A stretch of DNA of 44,613 nt from sequence record NC_027383.1. One strand, given 5' to 3'. This stretch comes from Escherichia phage YD-2008.s. Shown in pieces: positions 6,320 to 36,135 of this stretch (within the stretch, counting starts at the first letter, position 1; every line of letters starts with the position of its first letter). The notes beneath the pieces are model-generated. The model did no database searches, was not told where the DNA came from, and was given only the letters and a program-made list of their open reading frames with translations. Both the position numbers and the translations under genes were made by a program.

Positions 6320-6895
6320 ATGTACGGCGAATATGAAATATCTGGTAAACAATTCCACCTGGCGGCAATGATAGCAAGCATCGAGTTTGACCAGTGGCGG
6401 TATAAGTCCGACGCGTGCAAGCAAAGCCGTCTTGTCGGTGTGCTGGGCGAAATGTTTGCAGGCATGTACCTCGAAGGCCAGGCGGGCGGGCGTAGTTGTA
6501 TCCCGCAAGGTTTGCTAATGCGTACCGGCCTGTTTAGCGCTAATACTATCGACCGCGGCGATATTATCATGGTCGGCAAGCGCAAGGTAAAATCCGGCCC
6601 CGACTTCCGAGAACATACGATTGATGCCGTCTGGACATACGAGGTCAAAGCTACCAGCGGCATCCGTCGCGGGCTGGTTGAGGCACGTTGCGCTCGCGAA
6701 TACCTTACCCGTCGCGTTGCCGGTGTTATCCTTGTGGGCGTAGATTTCGGGCAACATAGCGCGCGCGGCGTGATCGAGGATATCGCGGAGCCATACGTGA
6801 TAGTGAACGACTGGCCACTGGTGGAAGTGGATGGTAAGGAATACTACGAAAGCCCGCTGGTGCGGCGCAAAATGGACTGGGAGAACTCAAACTAA
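6320..6895 (+). CDS. hypothetical protein (191 aa), possible PD-(D/E)xK-like
   Basis: GAGGGG RBS before ATG 6320; DIIMVGKRK...TYEVKAT weakly resembles a D...E-x-K nuclease signature. Confidence 0.45.
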   Translation: MYGEYEISGKQFHLAAMIASIEFDQWRYKSDACKQSRLVGVLGEMFAGMYLEGQAGGRSCIPQGLLMRTGLFSANTIDRGDIIMVGKRKVKSGPDFREHTIDAVWTYEVKATSGIRRGLVEARCAREYLTRRVAGVILVGVDFGQHSARGVIEDIAEPYVIVNDWPLVEVDGKEYYESPLVRRKMDWENSN

Positions 6896-6916
6896 AAAAG
6901 GGGCCGTATGGCCCCT
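6896..6916. terminator. bidirectional intrinsic terminator between convergent genes
   Basis: AAAAAA GGGGCC gtat GGCCCC then T-rich; T-run on the minus strand, A-run on the plus side. Confidence 0.6.
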
Positions 6917-6921
6917 CCTAT

Positions 6922-9093
6922 TCATTTCTTCAGCGCCGCGATCTCGGCCTCCATAGCCTCGATCTTCTGCATCAACACTTGCACAACGTGCATGGTGTCC
7001 AGTAACAGCGGGGTAGTATCCAGTTCTTTCTGCGTTACGTCAGGTGTGTCACTGGTCAGTCCAGAGTATGTCCGGGTCTTGACGTAAAGACTATCCACAA
7101 CTTCCGCTTGTTGTGCAACGAGGCCGCGGCGTTGACGACCTTGCGTGTCGTTATTGTACACAAACGTGTGGAACCTTAACGCCTTGATATTACTCCACGC
7201 TTTATCAACGGTTGTAGGCGTGATGTCATGTTTCATATTGGCATCAGACACAGCACTTGTGACGAACTGGTAGTTGCCGGACGTACCTGATGATGCCGGG
7301 GCACCGTCTGCGGTAAAAGAAAAGGTTCGTTCGGTTACACCTGCGTCCTGTAGCACTAGCTGGTGACCACGGGTTGTCGCGTTACCACCAATCTGTCTGA
7401 ACGAATACGACAACGTTTCGTAGTTTACAGCGGTTCCAATTTTATAGGTCGACTTGATCATGCCCCCATTCACGGTGACACCGGATACTGGTGACGTAGT
7501 GTCTGCGTTTTCAACACTCCACGACGTATTGGCCGCTACGAATCCACCGGATGCACGGATCACCCAGACGCCTACGAAGTTACGGCCCATAATTTCATCG
7601 GTAGATCTTCCGTAGATAGGGTTTGACTGCGATGCGTCAACCACGAGGGTATTAAAGCGTCCGGATACTAAAGGTACAGTAGTTTCCGGAATTGCAACAC
7701 CTGCTCCGGCAGGGAATAGGTCGTTGTTTGTTTTAAATGCACCTTCAGTGATATCACTGAATATCTGAGCGTATGTCGATGCAGAATAACCAGCAACACT
7801 GCCAGAGATATTAGGTGCTGCTGATTCAAAAATCTGACCATTTGTGGAAGAAGTACCGCCATCACCACGACCATACAAGCCGGGTATTGAGTTAACTTGT
7901 ACACCGTTACGGTCGGGTACGCGAAACGTTGTCGTACCATTACCGAGCGAGTATTTACCGCGTTTTGCTGGGTCTGCCAGCCAGTCGGCGTCACTGATAG
8001 GTGAGAGCATCTGAGCATAAGCCCAAAGTTCAGGCCAGTCAGCGCGGTTAAGAAGCTGCCCGTCTGAGACGACTTCATAAGGCTGAATATATGCGCGACT
8101 ATCACGCAGGTGGAAGTCGCCGACACCGTAGTTCATCACGCCATTCATTGTTGGGCCAACTGTGCCCGTGTTAATCATGTTCTGCACCCAGCGCTTAGTA
8201 ACGGCGTCGTAGTCGTTAACTGGGTCGCCAGCAAGCGGCGTGGCCCCATCCGGGCGAACGTTAAGCCAGGCTTGCGGTTTGTCGGTGAGTCCTGCCAGGT
8301 TGCCGGATTTGGTTAGCAGGTCATCCACGTTTACGCTTTTCGCCCACTCCTCGGCCTCGTTACGGTATCCCAGCGCGGCATCACGGGCGGCTTGCGCATC
8401 AGTCTTCGCTGTATTAGCCTCGTCGCGAATAACGCCGGTGTCAGTCTTGATCTGGTTCGTTTGGTCTTTGATCGCCTGCGTATCAGCCTTAATCTGGGCA
8501 GTCTGCGTCTTTATGGTATTAGTGGCGTCGTGGATCGCCTGCGTATCGGCCTTGATTTGGTTGGTCTGCGTCTTGATGGTATTGGCATCGTTCTTGAAGC
8601 CTTCGGCCTCATTGCGAAATCCTTGCGCTGCTGCTTCAGACGCGGCGGCTTGTTGTTGTAGGTTGCGCATTTCAACGGGGTCGATCTGCTTCATCAATTG
8701 CGACAGGTAGCCCCATGACATACCCTGCATAACTTGCCCGTTGGGCAGCGTAACGGTGATCTCTTCAGCGTCGCCGAAGATTGCACGCCAGTTGTTTTCA
8801 TCCGCAATCATCAAGCGCAATGCTTTCTGTGCCTGGACTGTTACGCCCATCGTCGCCAGTGACATGGTATCGCGCGCAACGCCATCCCAGGCAAGGCCGG
8901 TTGCCGTGGGGCCGTCGAACGGCAGCACCAGCGTAAGCGCGGTGTCGCTTTCGACGGACGCGATAGCAACAGTGTAAGGGACTTGCCCCACCACCAGCGT
9001 TAAGAAGTCGCCAGCTTTAAACGCGGTGAACGTCGTGCCGACACCGACTACCGCCTTGCTGTTATTCGTTACGGATAGTGTACCCGCTGCCAT
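6922..9093 (-). CDS. tail fibre protein with C-terminal intramolecular chaperone (peptidase S74-like) domain
   Basis: 723 aa; 21-aa tandem coiled-coil repeats (NTIKTQTNQIKADTQAI...); C-terminal ~105 aa starts with an S-D-x-x-x-K motif (SDANMKHDI) and ends in a coiled coil. Confidence 0.65.
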   Translation of the reverse strand: MAAGTLSVTNNSKAVVGVGTTFTAFKAGDFLTLVVGQVPYTVAIASVESDTALTLVLPFDGPTATGLAWDGVARDTMSLATMGVTVQAQKALRLMIADENNWRAIFGDAEEITVTLPNGQVMQGMSWGYLSQLMKQIDPVEMRNLQQQAAASEAAAQGFRNEAEGFKNDANTIKTQTNQIKADTQAIHDATNTIKTQTAQIKADTQAIKDQTNQIKTDTGVIRDEANTAKTDAQAARDAALGYRNEAEEWAKSVNVDDLLTKSGNLAGLTDKPQAWLNVRPDGATPLAGDPVNDYDAVTKRWVQNMINTGTVGPTMNGVMNYGVGDFHLRDSRAYIQPYEVVSDGQLLNRADWPELWAYAQMLSPISDADWLADPAKRGKYSLGNGTTTFRVPDRNGVQVNSIPGLYGRGDGGTSSTNGQIFESAAPNISGSVAGYSASTYAQIFSDITEGAFKTNNDLFPAGAGVAIPETTVPLVSGRFNTLVVDASQSNPIYGRSTDEIMGRNFVGVWVIRASGGFVAANTSWSVENADTTSPVSGVTVNGGMIKSTYKIGTAVNYETLSYSFRQIGGNATTRGHQLVLQDAGVTERTFSFTADGAPASSGTSGNYQFVTSAVSDANMKHDITPTTVDKAWSNIKALRFHTFVYNNDTQGRQRRGLVAQQAEVVDSLYVKTRTYSGLTSDTPDVTQKELDTTPLLLDTMHVVQVLMQKIEAMEAEIAALKK
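8405..8600. repeat. ~63-bp tandem coding repeats inside the tail fibre gene
   Basis: GATCGCCTGCGTATC(A/G)GCCTT(A/G)AT...GTCTGCGTCTT(T/G)ATGGTATT repeated about three times. Confidence 0.6.
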
Positions 9094-9114
9094 AGCTGAA
9101 TCCTCTTAAATTGG

Positions 9115-9143
9115 TTGCATTCTTGGTTGAGCGGTGCAATACT
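9115..9143 (+). promoter_or_regulatory. candidate promoter for the plus-strand lipoprotein gene
   Basis: TTGCAT 9115-9120, N17, AATACT; weak -10; contains TTGGTTGCA box and an inverted TTGGTTGAG/CTCAACCAA pair. Confidence 0.3.
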
Positions 9144-9173
9144 AAAACTCAACCAAATATAGGGGATGATACC

Positions 9174-9392
9174 ATGAAAACTTTAATTATGATTTGTGCG
9201 GTTCTTTTGTCGGGTTGTGCCAACATGCCGTCTAAAATCTGCGACGCGACATATGTTAATAGCGGCATGGAATACTCGGTCCCGGTGTTCGGTGTTGCCG
9301 ATTTTAGTGGGCATAAAATGTTGCGGGCGGGCTACCCGTTCAACTTCCGGTATGTTTCGGTAGACCACTTCAAAAGCACCACTTGCAAATAA
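9174..9392 (+). CDS. small outer-membrane lipoprotein, Cor-like superinfection-exclusion candidate
   Basis: 72 aa; signal peptide MKTLIMICAVLLSGC with lipobox LSGC; opposite strand to the flanking tail genes. Confidence 0.45.
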   Translation: MKTLIMICAVLLSGCANMPSKICDATYVNSGMEYSVPVFGVADFSGHKMLRAGYPFNFRYVSVDHFKSTTCK

Positions 9393-9411
9393 GCCCCGAA
9401 AGGGGCTTTTC
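9392..9411. terminator. bidirectional intrinsic terminator
   Basis: AGCCCC gaaa GGGGCT followed by TTTT; sits between convergent ORFs. Confidence 0.6.
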
Positions 9412-10081
9412 ATATCCCATCCACGTTAATTGCGGTCAGCGCAACGCCGGTGTTTTGATACCCAGCGATGCTACCAGACCCAGCCTGCGTAGCGACTGCG
9501 TTAATGCGAGTTCCGCTTCCGTTGTCGTAAGCCCCCGCCCCTGCCGAGATCTGGATAATCTGCGGCTGCCCCTGTACGAATATCTGAATAAGAGTAGCCC
9601 CCATTAACATAGGTGATACCGCGTACTTACCCGGCAGCGTCTGGTCTATGTTGATACCGCCGTTATTGCCGAAGCTGCCAACTGTGACTAAATCGGTGAG
9701 TACCTTGCTTTCGTTGGTGAGTATGCAAGTCCCGCTGGCGTCCCAAATAGCAAACCCCCATCTCGGCAGCGGTTGCGGGAATCGCGCGAATATGTACGCC
9801 GTGACGGTAAAATGTGGGTTATTCTGCCCCTGAATGCTTCCGCTAAATATAATCCGGTTACCTGATCGTGACGCCGCCAGGACGCAACGGTTATCTGACC
9901 GCATAAACACCATCGCCGGATAGTTCGCGGGAATATCCACGCCCCCGCTTGCGGTTTTATAATCAGCACCGGCGTCCACTGAATTTGCCGACACCTTAGC
10001 GTAGAGGACGAACGGCGTTGAGTTTGGCGTGACGAATGGGTTGCCGTTGTTGTTATCGATTAACGCGCCGAAGTTTGCCAT
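9410..10081 (-). CDS. tail-associated protein, function unknown (223 aa)
   Basis: GGAGAA RBS; lies between the J-like gene and the tail fibre; Gly/Ser/Thr/Asn-rich like fibre components. Confidence 0.5.
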   Translation of the reverse strand: MANFGALIDNNNGNPFVTPNSTPFVLYAKVSANSVDAGADYKTASGGVDIPANYPAMVFMRSDNRCVLAASRSGNRIIFSGSIQGQNNPHFTVTAYIFARFPQPLPRWGFAIWDASGTCILTNESKVLTDLVTVGSFGNNGGINIDQTLPGKYAVSPMLMGATLIQIFVQGQPQIIQISAGAGAYDNGSGTRINAVATQAGSGSIAGYQNTGVALTAINVDGI

Positions 10082-10083
10082 TT

Positions 10084-10386
10084 TTACGCTTTCTCCACAA
10101 AAACTACTACTTCACATTCTGACGCCGGGTAGTTTCCAATACCGACGCTGTTTGCCGCAGATACTGTTATCGTGTTCCCGCTGGCACGGATCGCCCGACC
10201 TACCGTAGTGCCGCCAACGTCCAGCGTAACCGCAAAACCCACTTTCATACCGGACGGAATATCGAACGACCACGCCCCCCATGTTTGACCTTGTGCCAGT
10301 TTAATAATTCCGACAACTGAAACGGGCTTGATCCCGTAGTTGTTTGGTCGCCCTTGCGCGTCCCATGTTGCGACACCGAAAGCCAT
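10084..10386 (-). CDS. tail-associated small protein (100 aa)
   Basis: Track ORF 10084..10485 trimmed to ATG 10386 with GGAGG RBS, downstream of the J stop. Confidence 0.45.
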   Translation of the reverse strand: MAFGVATWDAQGRPNNYGIKPVSVVGIIKLAQGQTWGAWSFDIPSGMKVGFAVTLDVGGTTVGRAIRASGNTITVSAANSVGIGNYPASECEVVVFVEKA

Positions 10387-10423
10387 GTTATACCTCCAAA
10401 AGAAAGGGGCCGAAGCCCCTATG

Positions 10424-13400
10424 CTACCAACTACCTGTGATTTCACCAATCTGCACGCGGAGCACGCCGTTTCCGTCCCTAACACTGATTTGCGTGTTAG
10501 TCTGTTTCATCCCGCCGCCGTTACCGGTTCCCAGGTTGATAAACGTTCCATCTTTCCCTAAGCGCCAGCCGCGCGTGCTGCCGTCGTAGTTATTAGATTG
10601 CAGCGTGTCCGTGATCTGCGCGAAGTTGATAGTCGCGTCCTTGATGCGTGCCGTGTCAATATACACCGCGCCGCCGTCCACGATAAACGCGGACGAAAGC
10701 GACCCGTTAGATGGGTGCATGATGTAGAACTGGTCCGCCTTGAACGCGATGCGGGATTTAACCGCGCCACCTTCCGCAACAACAGAAAGCTGCATACCGG
10801 CATCGTAGTAAGTCCCTTTATACGTCACGCCAGCCTTAAGACTGTACGTGGCGCTGCCACCAGCATGGTTAAACGAGGACGTCATCTTCTGCTCGATAGC
10901 GGCGGACTGCTGACCGAACTGTGTCGCGACCTGGGTCTTATATTCCGCCAGCGCTCCCGCCACGTCTGCGGTTGCCGTTTGTACCTGCTGGATGGCGGCT
11001 TCCTGTTCCCCGAACTTAGCGGCGACAGTTTGCTGATACTGGGCGAACGCTTGTTCCTGTGTGCTCTGTGCGGTCTGCAACGTGTGGATCGCCGCTTCCG
11101 CGTCATCAAGTCGCGTGCCGATCAACGTCTCCAGTTGAGCTACCGCCTTGTGGGCGTCCGCCGCCACGTTATACGCGACCGAGATTTCCGCATAAATACC
11201 CTTGTACTCGGCGCGGGCGTTGAACAATTGCTGCGCATCGGTGAGCATCGCCTCGTAAATACCCTGCGGGATCGTGTTGATTGCTTCCTGGAAGCGTTTA
11301 CCATCCTCGGAAGTCAAGAACTCGTCATCAAGCCCCTTCATGTACTCGTCAACTTTGTCACTCACCTGCCCCTCAAACGGGGCCGACCAGTCCGACAGGT
11401 TGCCGATTTTATCCGCTACGCGTGCGCGCAACTGCTGGTATATGCCGAACTCAAGCGACGTTTGCGCGTACTCCGCGCCAGGATATGGGACGTTTGTTAA
11501 GAATTTCCATTCCGTTTCGCCCGTCTTGCGGACTTCAAGCTCGGTGTAAGAGATATCCGTCGCAGCGTTGTTGTGGTTCCACTTCCACAAAATCTGGTGA
11601 AGGCCAGAAATCGCGTTGGTGATGATTGGTGCGTTAAGCCCACCGAGGCGACCTTCCACCGGCGTGATCGCGGAAGACACCCACGGGGACGAGATTTCGC
11701 CCATGCCAATTGCGCGGACGCGTGCCTGGTAGTTGCCGGAGAACACGTTAGGGATGTGCGCACCATTCGACGCCGTGCGCGGGATATTCACCCAGTCGTT
11801 ACCCCACTGGATTTCCATATTCTGAAGGCTGGTACGTCGCCACTGGATTTCATACACCACGGCATCTTTCACCGGCGGGAAAACAATATCCACGTTGGTG
11901 ATTAGCTGGCCTTGCGATGAAATCTGCGACGGAGTTATGGTCACGGACTCCGGCCCCTTCATTACACCGTCCGGCACTTGCGTAAAGATTCCGGGGTCAA
12001 GGCGAGCGCCATTATCAACGGCATCATATTTGCTATCGTTGTATTCAATCCCGCGCACCGAGAAAGTGCTCGTAGAGTCGTCATATTCCAGGTCGGTGAT
12101 GCGGAATTTTTGCAACTGGATATCGTCGCCATCAACGCAAAACGGTTGGTCTGGAATCGGGTCGGCATCCAGTGCGGTTTTTAGCGTGACCTTGTTGCCG
12201 TTGACGCTGGCGATCTCGCGAGTCTCGACATTTCCGCTATCGGTGCGTACCAGGAACTTATCGCCAGGGCGGAACGTGATTTCGCAGTCCGTGTTCAGTA
12301 CGGTACGCGTTCCGGGGTCTGACAACAGGCGACCGCCGCGAGTCTCGAATCCGCCAGAAATATTAGTATCTGCGATCGCAACTACGCTACCGGGGATAAA
12401 GAATAACCCCTCCATGCCAACTTTAAAGCTGACCTGCTGGTCCAACTGGTTGGATATTAGTGCCCAGTGCCCGCGGCGTTGCGCTTCAGATTCGCGCGTA
12501 CAGCCGATCGCCGTTATATCAAGACGGTTAATCTTATGGCGGCGCACCAGTTCGACGCGCTGGCCCGTCGCTATAGCGTCATCATAGTGGTTTTTCGGGT
12601 TGCCGTATGCTACCGCGAAAGTGGAGTACCGCGTTTTCTGGCTGCCAGATGCGTAGTCGAAGCGCCCATCAATAACCGATGCGTTGGTGATAGTGTGGGA
12701 CACCGCGGCTACTGGTTGGTCACTGACTATATTCAACATCTGGTTGCCCCACCAGGTCATTCCGGCAAAGATGGCAGCCAAATCCTTAAGCACGGTCCAG
12801 GCATCCGTCTGAGACTGAATGTACATATCATTCTTAAAGCGGATTTCTCGACCACCGTTGCCGTCGCTGACCAACTGATCGCAGCGCTGCGCAATCTGGT
12901 AGAGCGCGTACCGGTTTAACATTTGCGGTTTGATACGCCGACCGAGGCCGAAGCGCTCAGTAATACAAATATCGTACCAGTGCCACGCAGGGTTATCCGT
13001 CCATGCGCGTTTAAACGTGCCGTCCCAGTCCCCGGAATAGGTATGATTAATCGGGTCGTAGTTGTTCGGTATTAGAACTTTACGGCCTTTGCACTTGATG
13101 GACACGCGCGGGATGTTCTGGAACGCTTTGGCGTCGAACTCCACAAACAACAGCGCGGTTAGCGGGTAACGCAGGCGGGCGTCGATAATCTCCGTGATGG
13201 ACTGCACCCGGATATCATTAACCACTTTCGCCGATGTGGAGTCTGCCGTTATGCGGTGCACCTCCACGCGCCAGCCGGTGTTAACGTTAGGCGGTAGCTC
13301 GATGCGGTGATCTCGCTCGTACAGCGACATTGTTTTACCAACGGCAGCGAATGTAAACTCACGCGGGTCTGCGTTATCCGTATACACAACGATCTTATAG

Positions 13401-13843
13401 TCGATGCGCCCGCCCACCAGGTCGCCATTATCTTCGCTAGTGTACAGGGCAGGTATACCGATGCGAACGCGCACAGCGTCAAGACTGGTGTCGTTAATCT
13501 GTCGCACCCACGGCGTGCCGTTCTCCAGTTTTACCCCAACGGATTGCTCACTTTCCACCGCTGAAAATCCGTGGATCACATCCTGGTGCTGTGTTCCGGG
13601 GCGGAACTCCACACGCGCTCCTGGGAAGTTTTCGGACAGGTCTGCGTTCTGGATCGGTGTTCCGTCCAGGTATACACGCTGCCGCAATTCGCTGGCGCTC
13701 GTAATGCCTTCGAATTCACCCTCGCCCAACGCGAGCAAGATGCGGATTTTAGCCAGCGAATGCAGGCTATCGGGCGTCTCCTGTGGGGTGTGCTGTTTGC
13801 CGCCGCCGCCTTTATGGCCCGTGACGTCGTAGATAATCGTCAT
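10424..13843 (-). CDS. central tail fibre / tip attachment protein, lambda gpJ-like
   Basis: ~1139 aa; N-terminus MTIIYDVTGHKGGGGKQHTP... resembles the gpJ N-terminus; ATGA overlap with upstream gpI-like stop; track start 13909 rejected. Confidence 0.75.
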   Translation of the reverse strand: MTIIYDVTGHKGGGGKQHTPQETPDSLHSLAKIRILLALGEGEFEGITSASELRQRVYLDGTPIQNADLSENFPGARVEFRPGTQHQDVIHGFSAVESEQSVGVKLENGTPWVRQINDTSLDAVRVRIGIPALYTSEDNGDLVGGRIDYKIVVYTDNADPREFTFAAVGKTMSLYERDHRIELPPNVNTGWRVEVHRITADSTSAKVVNDIRVQSITEIIDARLRYPLTALLFVEFDAKAFQNIPRVSIKCKGRKVLIPNNYDPINHTYSGDWDGTFKRAWTDNPAWHWYDICITERFGLGRRIKPQMLNRYALYQIAQRCDQLVSDGNGGREIRFKNDMYIQSQTDAWTVLKDLAAIFAGMTWWGNQMLNIVSDQPVAAVSHTITNASVIDGRFDYASGSQKTRYSTFAVAYGNPKNHYDDAIATGQRVELVRRHKINRLDITAIGCTRESEAQRRGHWALISNQLDQQVSFKVGMEGLFFIPGSVVAIADTNISGGFETRGGRLLSDPGTRTVLNTDCEITFRPGDKFLVRTDSGNVETREIASVNGNKVTLKTALDADPIPDQPFCVDGDDIQLQKFRITDLEYDDSTSTFSVRGIEYNDSKYDAVDNGARLDPGIFTQVPDGVMKGPESVTITPSQISSQGQLITNVDIVFPPVKDAVVYEIQWRRTSLQNMEIQWGNDWVNIPRTASNGAHIPNVFSGNYQARVRAIGMGEISSPWVSSAITPVEGRLGGLNAPIITNAISGLHQILWKWNHNNAATDISYTELEVRKTGETEWKFLTNVPYPGAEYAQTSLEFGIYQQLRARVADKIGNLSDWSAPFEGQVSDKVDEYMKGLDDEFLTSEDGKRFQEAINTIPQGIYEAMLTDAQQLFNARAEYKGIYAEISVAYNVAADAHKAVAQLETLIGTRLDDAEAAIHTLQTAQSTQEQAFAQYQQTVAAKFGEQEAAIQQVQTATADVAGALAEYKTQVATQFGQQSAAIEQKMTSSFNHAGGSATYSLKAGVTYKGTYYDAGMQLSVVAEGGAVKSRIAFKADQFYIMHPSNGSLSSAFIVDGGAVYIDTARIKDATINFAQITDTLQSNNYDGSTRGWRLGKDGTFINLGTGNGGGMKQTNTQISVRDGNGVLRVQIGEITGSW

Positions 13844-14457
13844 TCGTTCAAATCCTCGGTTACGATTCCGGCTGAAATAATAGCGCCACCGATCTCGCGC
13901 TCGCCCCATAATACACCAAGTGCTGTGCCTTGCGCGGTCGTGTTTACTGGTCCGCCGAACGCATACGACGCCTTGTTATCCACGTCCTGCCTTGTCTGCA
14001 ATCCTTTCGGTTGTGGCGACAGCAATTGCATAACGCCACCCAGCGCCATCGACATCCCGAACGAAAACGTCGCCGTACCGATAGCGGCAGCGGTTGCAGC
14101 CGAAGCCCCGAAAGCGGCAGTAGCAAGTCCGCCCGTATAGAACGACGCCACTACGATCGCGACACCCGCCAGCAATTGTCCCAACCCTCTTTTTGCGCCA
14201 GTCATAACCGGCGCGATGGTAACGACGCGGTTGCCGTGGAACTCTCCTAGCTCATCATAGCCGGTCATTGTGTGGTCGCCTTTGCGCACCTTGAACATCA
14301 TGTTGTCCAGGTGGGCCGACATTAAAAAGTCTTGTAACCCTGGCAACTTCACACACAAGCCGGTGATTCCTTCGCCCGGAGTGAAGCAATCCAGCTTATG
14401 CACTTTTCCGAATCGACGCCCTAAGACGCCGTACAATTTAAACGTTGTCATTGCCAT
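13840..14457 (-). CDS. tail assembly protein, lambda gpI-like
   Basis: 205 aa; position between K-like and J-like genes; Ala/Gly-rich hydrophobic C-terminal half. Confidence 0.55.
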   Translation of the reverse strand: MAMTTFKLYGVLGRRFGKVHKLDCFTPGEGITGLCVKLPGLQDFLMSAHLDNMMFKVRKGDHTMTGYDELGEFHGNRVVTIAPVMTGAKRGLGQLLAGVAIVVASFYTGGLATAAFGASAATAAAIGTATFSFGMSMALGGVMQLLSPQPKGLQTRQDVDNKASYAFGGPVNTTAQGTALGVLWGEREIGGAIISAGIVTEDLNE

Positions 14458-19267: not shown

Positions 19268-19650
19268 TTTATGCAGTTGCCGTCGGTCATTGTATCAGCG
19301 AATTTAAAACAAACCTTATTCAGTCTCAGACGAGGGGGGCCATTGACCCCCGTCTAGTCTGAAAGACTGGGCTTTGTCCCGCCTGTCCCGATCGGCTAAA
19401 ACCCGCGGCAGCACTGGCTGGGACAGGGGTGCTGTCCCGCTTTGTCCCGCCCAATTCTGCCCCGCTTTTTGTCCCGTTTGTTTTATGCAGAAAAACCGCA
19501 TAGCCATTCACTTTTGAGGGGTGGGACAGATCGGGACAGCACCCCCGTCCCGCTTTTAGTTTATGCAATGAAAGTGAGTATATATGCGGTTTAATGGTGG
19601 CGGGACAAAACGGGACGTCCCGCCTGTCCCGCTTCGTTATGCGGGGTTCT
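19268..19650. repeat. iteron-rich structured noncoding element A
   Basis: ~380 bp without a credible ORF; at least 12 GTCCCGC/GCGGGAC heptamers; hairpin AGACGAGGGGG...CCCCCGTCT; palindromes GGGACAGGGGTGCTGTCCC and CGGGACGTCCCG; core 19307..19480 is homologous to 35962..36135. Confidence 0.6.
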
Positions 19651-35961: not shown

Positions 35962-36135
35962 TTATGCAGTCTCAGACGAGGGGGTGACAGACCCCCCGTC
36001 TAGTCTGAAAGACTGGGGTGCTGTCCCGCTGTCCCGCTCCTCGCCAGGCCGCGTCATCCGGGGCGGGACAGGGGTGCTGTCCCGCTTTGTCCCGCCTCCT
36101 GTTTGTCCCGCTTTTTGTCCCGCTTACTTTATGCA
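35962..36135. repeat. iteron-rich structured noncoding element B (homologue of 19307..19480)
   Basis: Same hairpin stem AGACGAGGGGG/CCCCCGTCT with a different loop; GGGACAGGGGTGCTGTCCCGCTTTGTCCCGCC shared block; about 7 GTCCCGC copies; bounded by TTATGCAG on both sides; AT-rich stretch follows. Confidence 0.6.

Follow-up and report, generated by a model that had tools for sequence, protein, structure and literature searches.

A Cor-family lipoprotein gene, probably directed against FhuA, inverted among the tail genes of Escherichia phage YD-2008.s

The sequence of Escherichia phage YD-2008.s (NC_027383.1) comprises 44,613 nt, and this whole stretch, numbered on one strand from 5′ to 3′, is the window analysed here. 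On its plus strand, positions 9174..9392 (ATG at 9174, TAA at 9390-9392) encode a prolipoprotein of 72 aa, and we refer to this gene as cor. It is flanked by two genes of the minus strand, a lateral tail fibre gene (6922..9093) and a gp23-like gene (9410..10081). Because the lateral tail fibre gene lies beyond it, cor interrupts a row of minus-strand tail genes. This arrangement is the one described by the original prediction, namely a 72-aa lipoprotein with the lipobox LSGC encoded on the plus strand between minus-strand tail genes, and both the open reading frame and a rule-based lipobox match agree with it. The span highlighted in that prediction, 9115-9411, extends from a candidate -35 element to the end of the T-run of a terminator hairpin.

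The sequence is a complete genome of a Dhillonvirus, an E. coli siphophage. It is collinear over its whole length with SSL-2009a of the same genus, at about 90-94% DNA identity, with breaks in the distal part of the lateral tail fibre gene (6928-8347) and in two short stretches. No integrase and no repressor are present in the annotation of SSL-2009a, and YD-2008.s appears to be virulent.

The product of cor is MKTLIMICAVLLSGCANMPSKICDATYVNSGMEYSVPVFGVADFSGHKMLRAGYPFNFRYVSVDHFKSTTCK. Its N-terminus, MKTLIMICAVLLSGC followed by A, has K2 in the n-region, a hydrophobic core, the lipobox LSGC and Ala at position +2. Ala at +2 leads to sorting of a lipoprotein to the outer membrane, and this residue predicts an outer-membrane location for Cor. 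The putative lipoprotein signal peptide (residues 1-14) together with Cys15 is encoded at 9174..9218 on the plus strand, with the lipobox L12-S13-G14-C15 at 9207-9218. The lipoprotein prediction proposed as a check of the original claim was carried out with a regular expression modelled on PROSITE rule PS51257, and this pattern fits residues 5-15 (IMICAVLLSGC). The mature domain (9216..9389, plus strand) would be a small beta protein of 58 aa. It carries the RAGYPF motif and two cysteines, Cys23 and Cys71, which are positions 9 and 57 of the mature protein.

The lateral tail fibre gene encodes 723 aa and matches PHROGs 6921 and 1980. Its start is 81 nt from cor, and the two genes diverge. Within this gene, positions 6928-8347 are without a match in SSL-2009a, and the protein has 723 aa versus 538 aa there. 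This segment is a swapped host-range domain, and it is probably O-antigen-binding.

On the other side, the gp23-like gene (minus strand, 223 aa) matches PHROG 425 at E=7e-67, and its protein is 48% identical to phi80 gp23 and 47% identical to T1 orf31. It is followed by the gp22-like gene (10084..10386, minus strand, 100 aa), which matches PHROG 557 at E=2e-31 and whose product is 75% identical to phi80 gp22. Both genes are part of a receptor-specific cassette; the gp23-like gene's own role is putative. The mechanically called open reading frame of the gp22-like gene, 10084-10485 (133 aa), is too long: the alignment with phi80 gp22 begins at the ATG at 10386, giving 100 aa. Taken as a whole, the central tail fibre or host specificity protein J (10424..13909, minus strand, PHROG 31) shares 37% identity with phi80 J. 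Its C-terminal tip is conserved, and its last ~43 codons (10424-~10550) fall within the exchangeable cassette. Here too, the mechanical open reading frame (10424-13909) is longer than the likely gene, and J of SSL-2009a is annotated about 22 codons shorter. The FhuA cassette is complete in YD-2008.s, with the J tip, the gp22-like gene, the gp23-like gene and cor.

YD-2008.s shares the gene order J, gp22, gp23, cor with phi80 and T1. In the temperate phage phi80, cor is co-directional with the tail genes and expressed from the prophage, whereas cor of YD-2008.s is inverted. The cor gene of T1 is inverted as well, and convergent with the gp23-like gene, as in YD-2008.s. The cor genes of SSL-2009a, UAE_MI-01, SECphi18 and other Dhillonviruses have the same context and orientation, with no difference of substance; YD-2008.s is a separate isolate, with a DNA identity of about 93% to SSL-2009a, from which it differs in the tip of its lateral tail fibre.

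Upstream of cor we found a candidate sigma-70 promoter of the extended -10 type on the plus strand (9115..9143), made of TTGCAT (9115-9120), a 17-nt spacer, TG (9135-9136) and AATACT (9138-9143), with a predicted transcription start near 9150. A Shine-Dalgarno-like AGGGGA (9161..9166, plus strand), which reads AGGGGA or AGGAGA in relatives, ends 7 nt before the ATG and could plausibly serve as the ribosome-binding site. Neither the hexamers nor the TG vary among the 11 Dhillonvirus loci compared (11/11). Nonetheless conservation is about 93% over all 81 nt between the two genes, so that the invariance of the hexamers does not single out the promoter, which remains a candidate. The site is missing from the output of a consensus scan, as its -35 matches the consensus at just 3/6 positions. 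In phi80, cor has its own annotated promoter, also of the extended -10 type, and its own annotated terminator.

The -10 element is bracketed by a 9-bp inverted repeat, TTGGTTGAG (9123-9131) and CTCAACCAA (9148-9156). Folding of this region (9123..9156) gives -11.4 kcal/mol on the plus strand (z -3.5) and -12.2 kcal/mol on the minus strand (z -3.0). Covariation among 11 sequences is mixed: one change is compensatory, two wobble changes fit the minus strand only, one fits the plus strand only and two break the pairing. The repeat may serve as an operator; alternatively, it may form a stem-loop in the leader of the mRNA for the tail fibre gene on the minus strand.

The other end of cor is marked by a hairpin, AAGCCCC-GAAA-GGGGCTT (9391-9408), which together with a T-run occupies 9391..9410 and is a candidate bidirectional intrinsic terminator. 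It fills the entire gap between two convergent stop codons, the TAA of cor (9390-9392) and the TGA of the gp23-like gene (complement of 9410-9412). The predicted energy is -13.0 kcal/mol on the plus strand (z -3.1) and -12.6 kcal/mol on the minus strand (z -2.1). In five relatives the GCCCC/GGGGC core of the stem is invariant, with GAAA, TTCC, GGAA or TTTC as the loop. A terminator scan passed over this hairpin, probably because too few T are left once the stem is extended. T1 has a GC hairpin in the equivalent place, listed in its annotation as a terminator and assigned to the strand of the convergent gene. The original prediction had given the locus a candidate promoter and a bidirectional terminator, and both are plausible from the sequence. 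The hairpin is present with a conserved stem core; the promoter stands as a conserved extended -10 candidate with a poor -35 (3/6). Signals of its own at both ends would mark a gene as a moron, an independent transcription unit within a late operon of a phage, and cor may be one.

We also considered other signals within cor. Two weak promoter-like sites at 9166-9193 (plus strand) and 9213-9186 (minus strand) overlap the start of cor, and two weak terminator-like sites lie at 9283-9301. We attribute all of these to chance, as the counts of such sites are not clearly above those in shuffled sequences. For the minus-strand site at 9213-9186, the -35 moreover varies at wobble positions among relatives. 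This site, a weak one, is also the only promoter-like match antisense to cor. Minus-strand transcripts reach the cor hairpin before the lateral tail fibre gene, so transcription of that gene needs either read-through at the hairpin or a promoter antisense to cor.

A further hairpin, AGGGGCC-GTAT-GGCCCCT (6896-6919), strong and GC-rich, separates the plus-strand early genes, which end at 6895, from the tail fibre gene of the minus strand, which ends at 6922. Its T-run is good on the minus strand and poor on the plus strand. Judged by this asymmetry, early plus-strand transcripts might read through it, antisense to the tail fibre gene and towards cor, and so be a source of cor mRNA.

Elsewhere the genome contains a pair of direct repeats outside coding sequence (19316-19490 and 35962-36135), each about 175 bp long and 82% identical to the other. 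Each has a GC hairpin (GACGAGGGGG...CCCCCGTC) and, after it, a TGTCCCGC / TTTGTCCCGC motif in several copies, more of which are found nearby in the opposite orientation. The repeats are located in gaps without a long open reading frame, just upstream of long minus-strand open reading frames (one tape-measure-like, the other primase/helicase-like), and both occur in SSL-2009a too. They are candidate regulator-binding arrays or phage promoters.

The original prediction had proposed a Cor-type protein from the size, the lipobox and the position of the gene. Profile and homology searches, gene order and the predicted fold all point the same way. The protein matches PHROG 1119, 'Cor superinfection exclusion protein', at E=6.3e-28 (residues 1-72 on positions 1-75 of a 78-position profile), and the NCBIfam equivalog NF047972, 'phage exclusion lipoprotein Cor', with 60.7 bits against a cut-off of 31 bits (residues 2-71 on positions 2-76 of 78). 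A tblastn search of phage records with Cor gave matches in 244 records. Among these, identity is 49-51% to T1, 46% to HK022, 42% to phi80 and 40% to N15, so the homology to Cor proteins asked for as a check lies at 40-51%. Proteins at least 74% identical are found in about 75 Dhillonvirus records. For example, a UAE_MI-01 protein annotated as 'superinfection exclusion protein' is 100% identical to YD-2008.s Cor, gp27 of SSL-2009a, annotated as 'Cor superinfection exclusion protein', is 94% identical, and identity is 85% for the Cor proteins of JLBYU37 and Teewinot. By these matches the gene is a member of the Cor family that is already known and annotated within Dhillonvirus.

A profile built from five sequences retrieved 156 relatives from a large protein database, many of which bear the name 'phage exclusion lipoprotein Cor'. 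A query with one sequence alone, limited by the word index of this database, found 6 close relatives only. Pfam has no family for Cor, and the sole match there, DcuA_DcuB at E=0.26, is noise; PADLOC gave no match to cor. The search of PDB sequences returned only matches at E~1 (gamma-crystallin S and Llp).

In comparisons with five relatives, cor has pS of 0.09-0.56, pN of 0.02-0.07 and pN/pS of 0.05-0.27: cor is a real gene under purifying selection. Across an alignment of 42 Cor members, Cys15, Cys23, Cys71, A52, G53 and P55 are invariant, and Gly14 is at least 90% conserved. YD-2008.s Cor carries LRAGYPF, and A52-G53-x-P55 is the invariant core of this motif. Like the Cor proteins of phi80, N15, HK022, mEp167 and T1, YD-2008.s Cor has the lipobox, both mature cysteines and the RAGYPF motif.

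An AlphaFold2 model of Cor, computed from the 42-sequence alignment, is all beta with a mean pLDDT of 84, rising to 93-94 over residues 21-70. The predicted fold is that of Llp of phage T5, which has been solved in complex with FhuA (PDB 8A60 chain B; 7QJF). In a Foldseek comparison the likeness of the model to Llp (8a60_B) is weak (E=0.09), with Tudor domains slightly ahead of it. In a library of viral models, Dhillonvirus Cor comes first, followed by small proteins of phages DT571/2 and slur09. With phmmer against PDB sequences, the Llp match (8a60_B) is insignificant (E=0.97) and covers residues 3-40 in an alignment that begins within the signal peptide, which places Cor in a sequence family separate from Llp despite the similar predicted fold. 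Llp has a Cys11-Cys58 disulfide that ties its two ends together and is common to the Cor family (PMC9586334). The same Llp-like fold has been reported for other Cor proteins (PMC13164509; bioRxiv 10.64898/2026.03.26.714494).

Taken together, we consider it very probable that the open reading frame at 9174..9392 is the cor gene of a virulent Dhillonvirus and that its product is a lipoprotein which inactivates FhuA of the infected cell. The gene would be transcribed by the host RNA polymerase from its own extended -10 promoter, as the upstream sequence suggests. The 72-aa precursor would pass through the Sec, Lgt, LspA and Lnt pathway, that is, be exported, lipidated at Cys15 and cleaved. By analogy with the Llp complex, mature Cor would be tethered to the outer membrane on its inner leaflet, as a small beta protein of 58 aa with a Cys23-Cys71 disulfide that probably links its two ends. 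It may then bind the periplasmic face of the FhuA plug, on the model of the T5 Llp-FhuA complex and of the genetics of the phi80, N15 and mEp167 Cor proteins. In the solved Llp-FhuA complex, binding to the plug from the periplasm forces the extracellular loops EL7 and EL8 inward (PMC9586334). If Cor acts like Llp, the same inward movement of EL7 and EL8 would remove the phage binding site and leave FhuA unusable. The infected cell and its debris would then no longer take up or inactivate FhuA-dependent phages, the phage's own progeny included.

Several published observations bear on this proposal. The Dhillonviruses JLBYU37, JLBYU60 and Teewinot depend on FhuA by experiment and need its loop 8 (PMC10373560), and this loop 8 dependence fits a mechanism of loop displacement. 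Llp-like binding of FhuA by Cor has been published solely as AlphaFold3 models of other Cor proteins (PMC13164509; bioRxiv 10.64898/2026.03.26.714494), and how Cor itself works at the molecular level, as opposed to Llp, is said to await elucidation (bioRxiv 10.64898/2026.03.26.714494). We found no experiments on any Dhillonvirus Cor in the literature.

Inactivation of FhuA could bring two different benefits. Besides excluding other phages, it may have been selected because it spares released progeny from receptors in debris or vesicles, as proposed for T5 Llp. SSL-2009a, with which YD-2008.s is collinear, has no annotated integrase or repressor, so there is no lysogen to protect, and PMC13164509 cites progeny protection as a role of such proteins. 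The sequence does not distinguish between these benefits, and both may apply. We regard progeny protection as a serious possibility, somewhat short of an even chance, and one compatible with the reading of cor as an inactivator of FhuA.

It is improbable, in our judgement, that Cor of YD-2008.s blocks another outer-membrane receptor instead, such as BtuB or a different TonB-dependent transporter. Cor-like proteins are also found in BtuB-using phages, namely BtuB-dependent Markadamsvirinae and a Tempevirinae phage (PMC13164509), and hence membership of the Cor family alone does not fix the target. Nevertheless these BtuB cases lack one or both of the accompanying genes, whereas YD-2008.s has the gp22-like and gp23-like genes, with products 48-75% identical to those of the FhuA-dependent phi80. 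In the BASEL collection, the three-gene Cor cassette is found in 10 Drexlerviridae and Dhillonvirus phages, all of them FhuA users (10/10), and the full cassette is found only among FhuA users (PMC13164509). The FhuA-dependent Dhillonviruses of PMC10373560 that carry an 85% identical Cor also argue against a different target.

The case for FhuA gains further support from the way in which the cor locus is exchanged among Dhillonviruses. SO-1, EK99P-1, slur05 and other members of the genus match residues 1-16 of Cor only. The DNA shared with the SO-1-type locus comprises the start of the tail fibre gene, the promoter region and codons 1-16 (9060-9221). Homology to these Dhillonviruses of the LptD type ends at 9221, the end of codon 16, and resumes at about 10550, within J and ~43 codons short of its end. 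Between these two points the SO-1 type carries two plus-strand genes instead, a lipoprotein gene followed by a receptor-binding gene. The SO-1 lipoprotein is of the Rtp45 family (9rps_D, E=1.5e-8), and the receptor-binding protein is of the Oekolampad type directed at LptD (9rpt_C, E=1.7e-210). The receptor-binding gene of the LptD cassette is on the strand of the lipoprotein gene, whereas the gp22-like and gp23-like genes of YD-2008.s are on the strand opposite to cor. The promoter kept in the LptD version presumably drives a virion protein gene in addition to the lipoprotein gene.

Rtp45-type lipoproteins (PDB 9RPS chain D) thus occupy the same slot behind the same promoter in other Dhillonviruses, in the SO-1 type with the same 16 N-terminal residues. 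Both they and, by prediction, Cor are periplasmic lipoproteins that block the receptor of their own phage. The mature domain of the Rtp45 type is unrelated to that of Cor, and its target is LptD; Rtp45 is absent from the PDB sequence matches of YD-2008.s Cor at E<=10. The Rtp45/LptD version of the slot is found in about 60 records, and the stretch of promoter plus signal peptide in 156 records. HK578 keeps the promoter and the first five codons and then has a different, Rtp45-like signal peptide. As far as these sequences indicate, the slot always holds an exclusion lipoprotein that matches the receptor cassette, and this tracking supports the functional assignment of cor. Such swapping fits the account of exchangeable receptor-binding loci in PMC8594841.

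Joint exchange with the receptor-binding cassette, together with the location of cor among tail genes, would also be expected of a structural or chaperone helper in the assembly of the tail tip or of the receptor-binding protein, with no part in exclusion. We considered this explanation and rejected it as very unlikely. Tail assembly takes place in the cytoplasm, the wrong compartment for a helper that is lipidated and periplasmic, and the predicted fold matches a solved exclusion protein. In addition, bioRxiv 10.64898/2026.03.26.714494 cites work (Uc-Mass 2004; Hernandez-Sanchez 2008) in which homologues act when expressed alone from a prophage.

Least likely of all, and likewise rejected, is an Rz1-like outer-membrane spanin subunit or another lysis lipoprotein: Cor is a small protein with the predicted features of an outer-membrane lipoprotein, and its residues 3-23 weakly match PHROG 456, 'Rz-like spanin' (E=0.11), but this match is limited to the signal peptide, the mature domain matches Cor profiles over its full length, and cor lies between tail genes whereas the collinear SSL-2009a has a spanin pair annotated after a head morphogenesis gene and its holins and endolysin in another block. 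Genes for outer-membrane spanin subunits belong in or beside the lysis genes, in most cases inside the gene of the inner-membrane spanin or after it.

Beyond the assignment of cor to exclusion, we tentatively put forward a wider idea, which we think possible though on balance doubtful. Dhillonviruses may have a fixed expression socket beside the lateral tail fibre gene, consisting of a promoter, a ribosome-binding site and a signal peptide of 16 codons, into which receptor-specific mature domains recombine together with the receptor-binding cassette. In SO-1 the junction falls exactly after the lipobox (Cys15-Ala16), resulting in a chimeric lipoprotein of the Rtp45 family with a Cor-type signal peptide.

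The Cor family, its position and its annotation in Dhillonvirus have already been published, so the identification of cor adds no new biology in itself. For YD-2008.s, cor marks the phage as a probable user of FhuA. Cells infected by it are predicted to resist other FhuA-dependent phages such as T1, T5 and phi80, and they would probably lose ferrichrome uptake. Such loci can therefore be of use in predicting receptors and in choosing phages for cocktails. Finally, if the junction after the lipobox is selected, and not the mere edge of flanking homology, the slot would represent a natural design rule for joint swaps of receptor specificity and exclusion.
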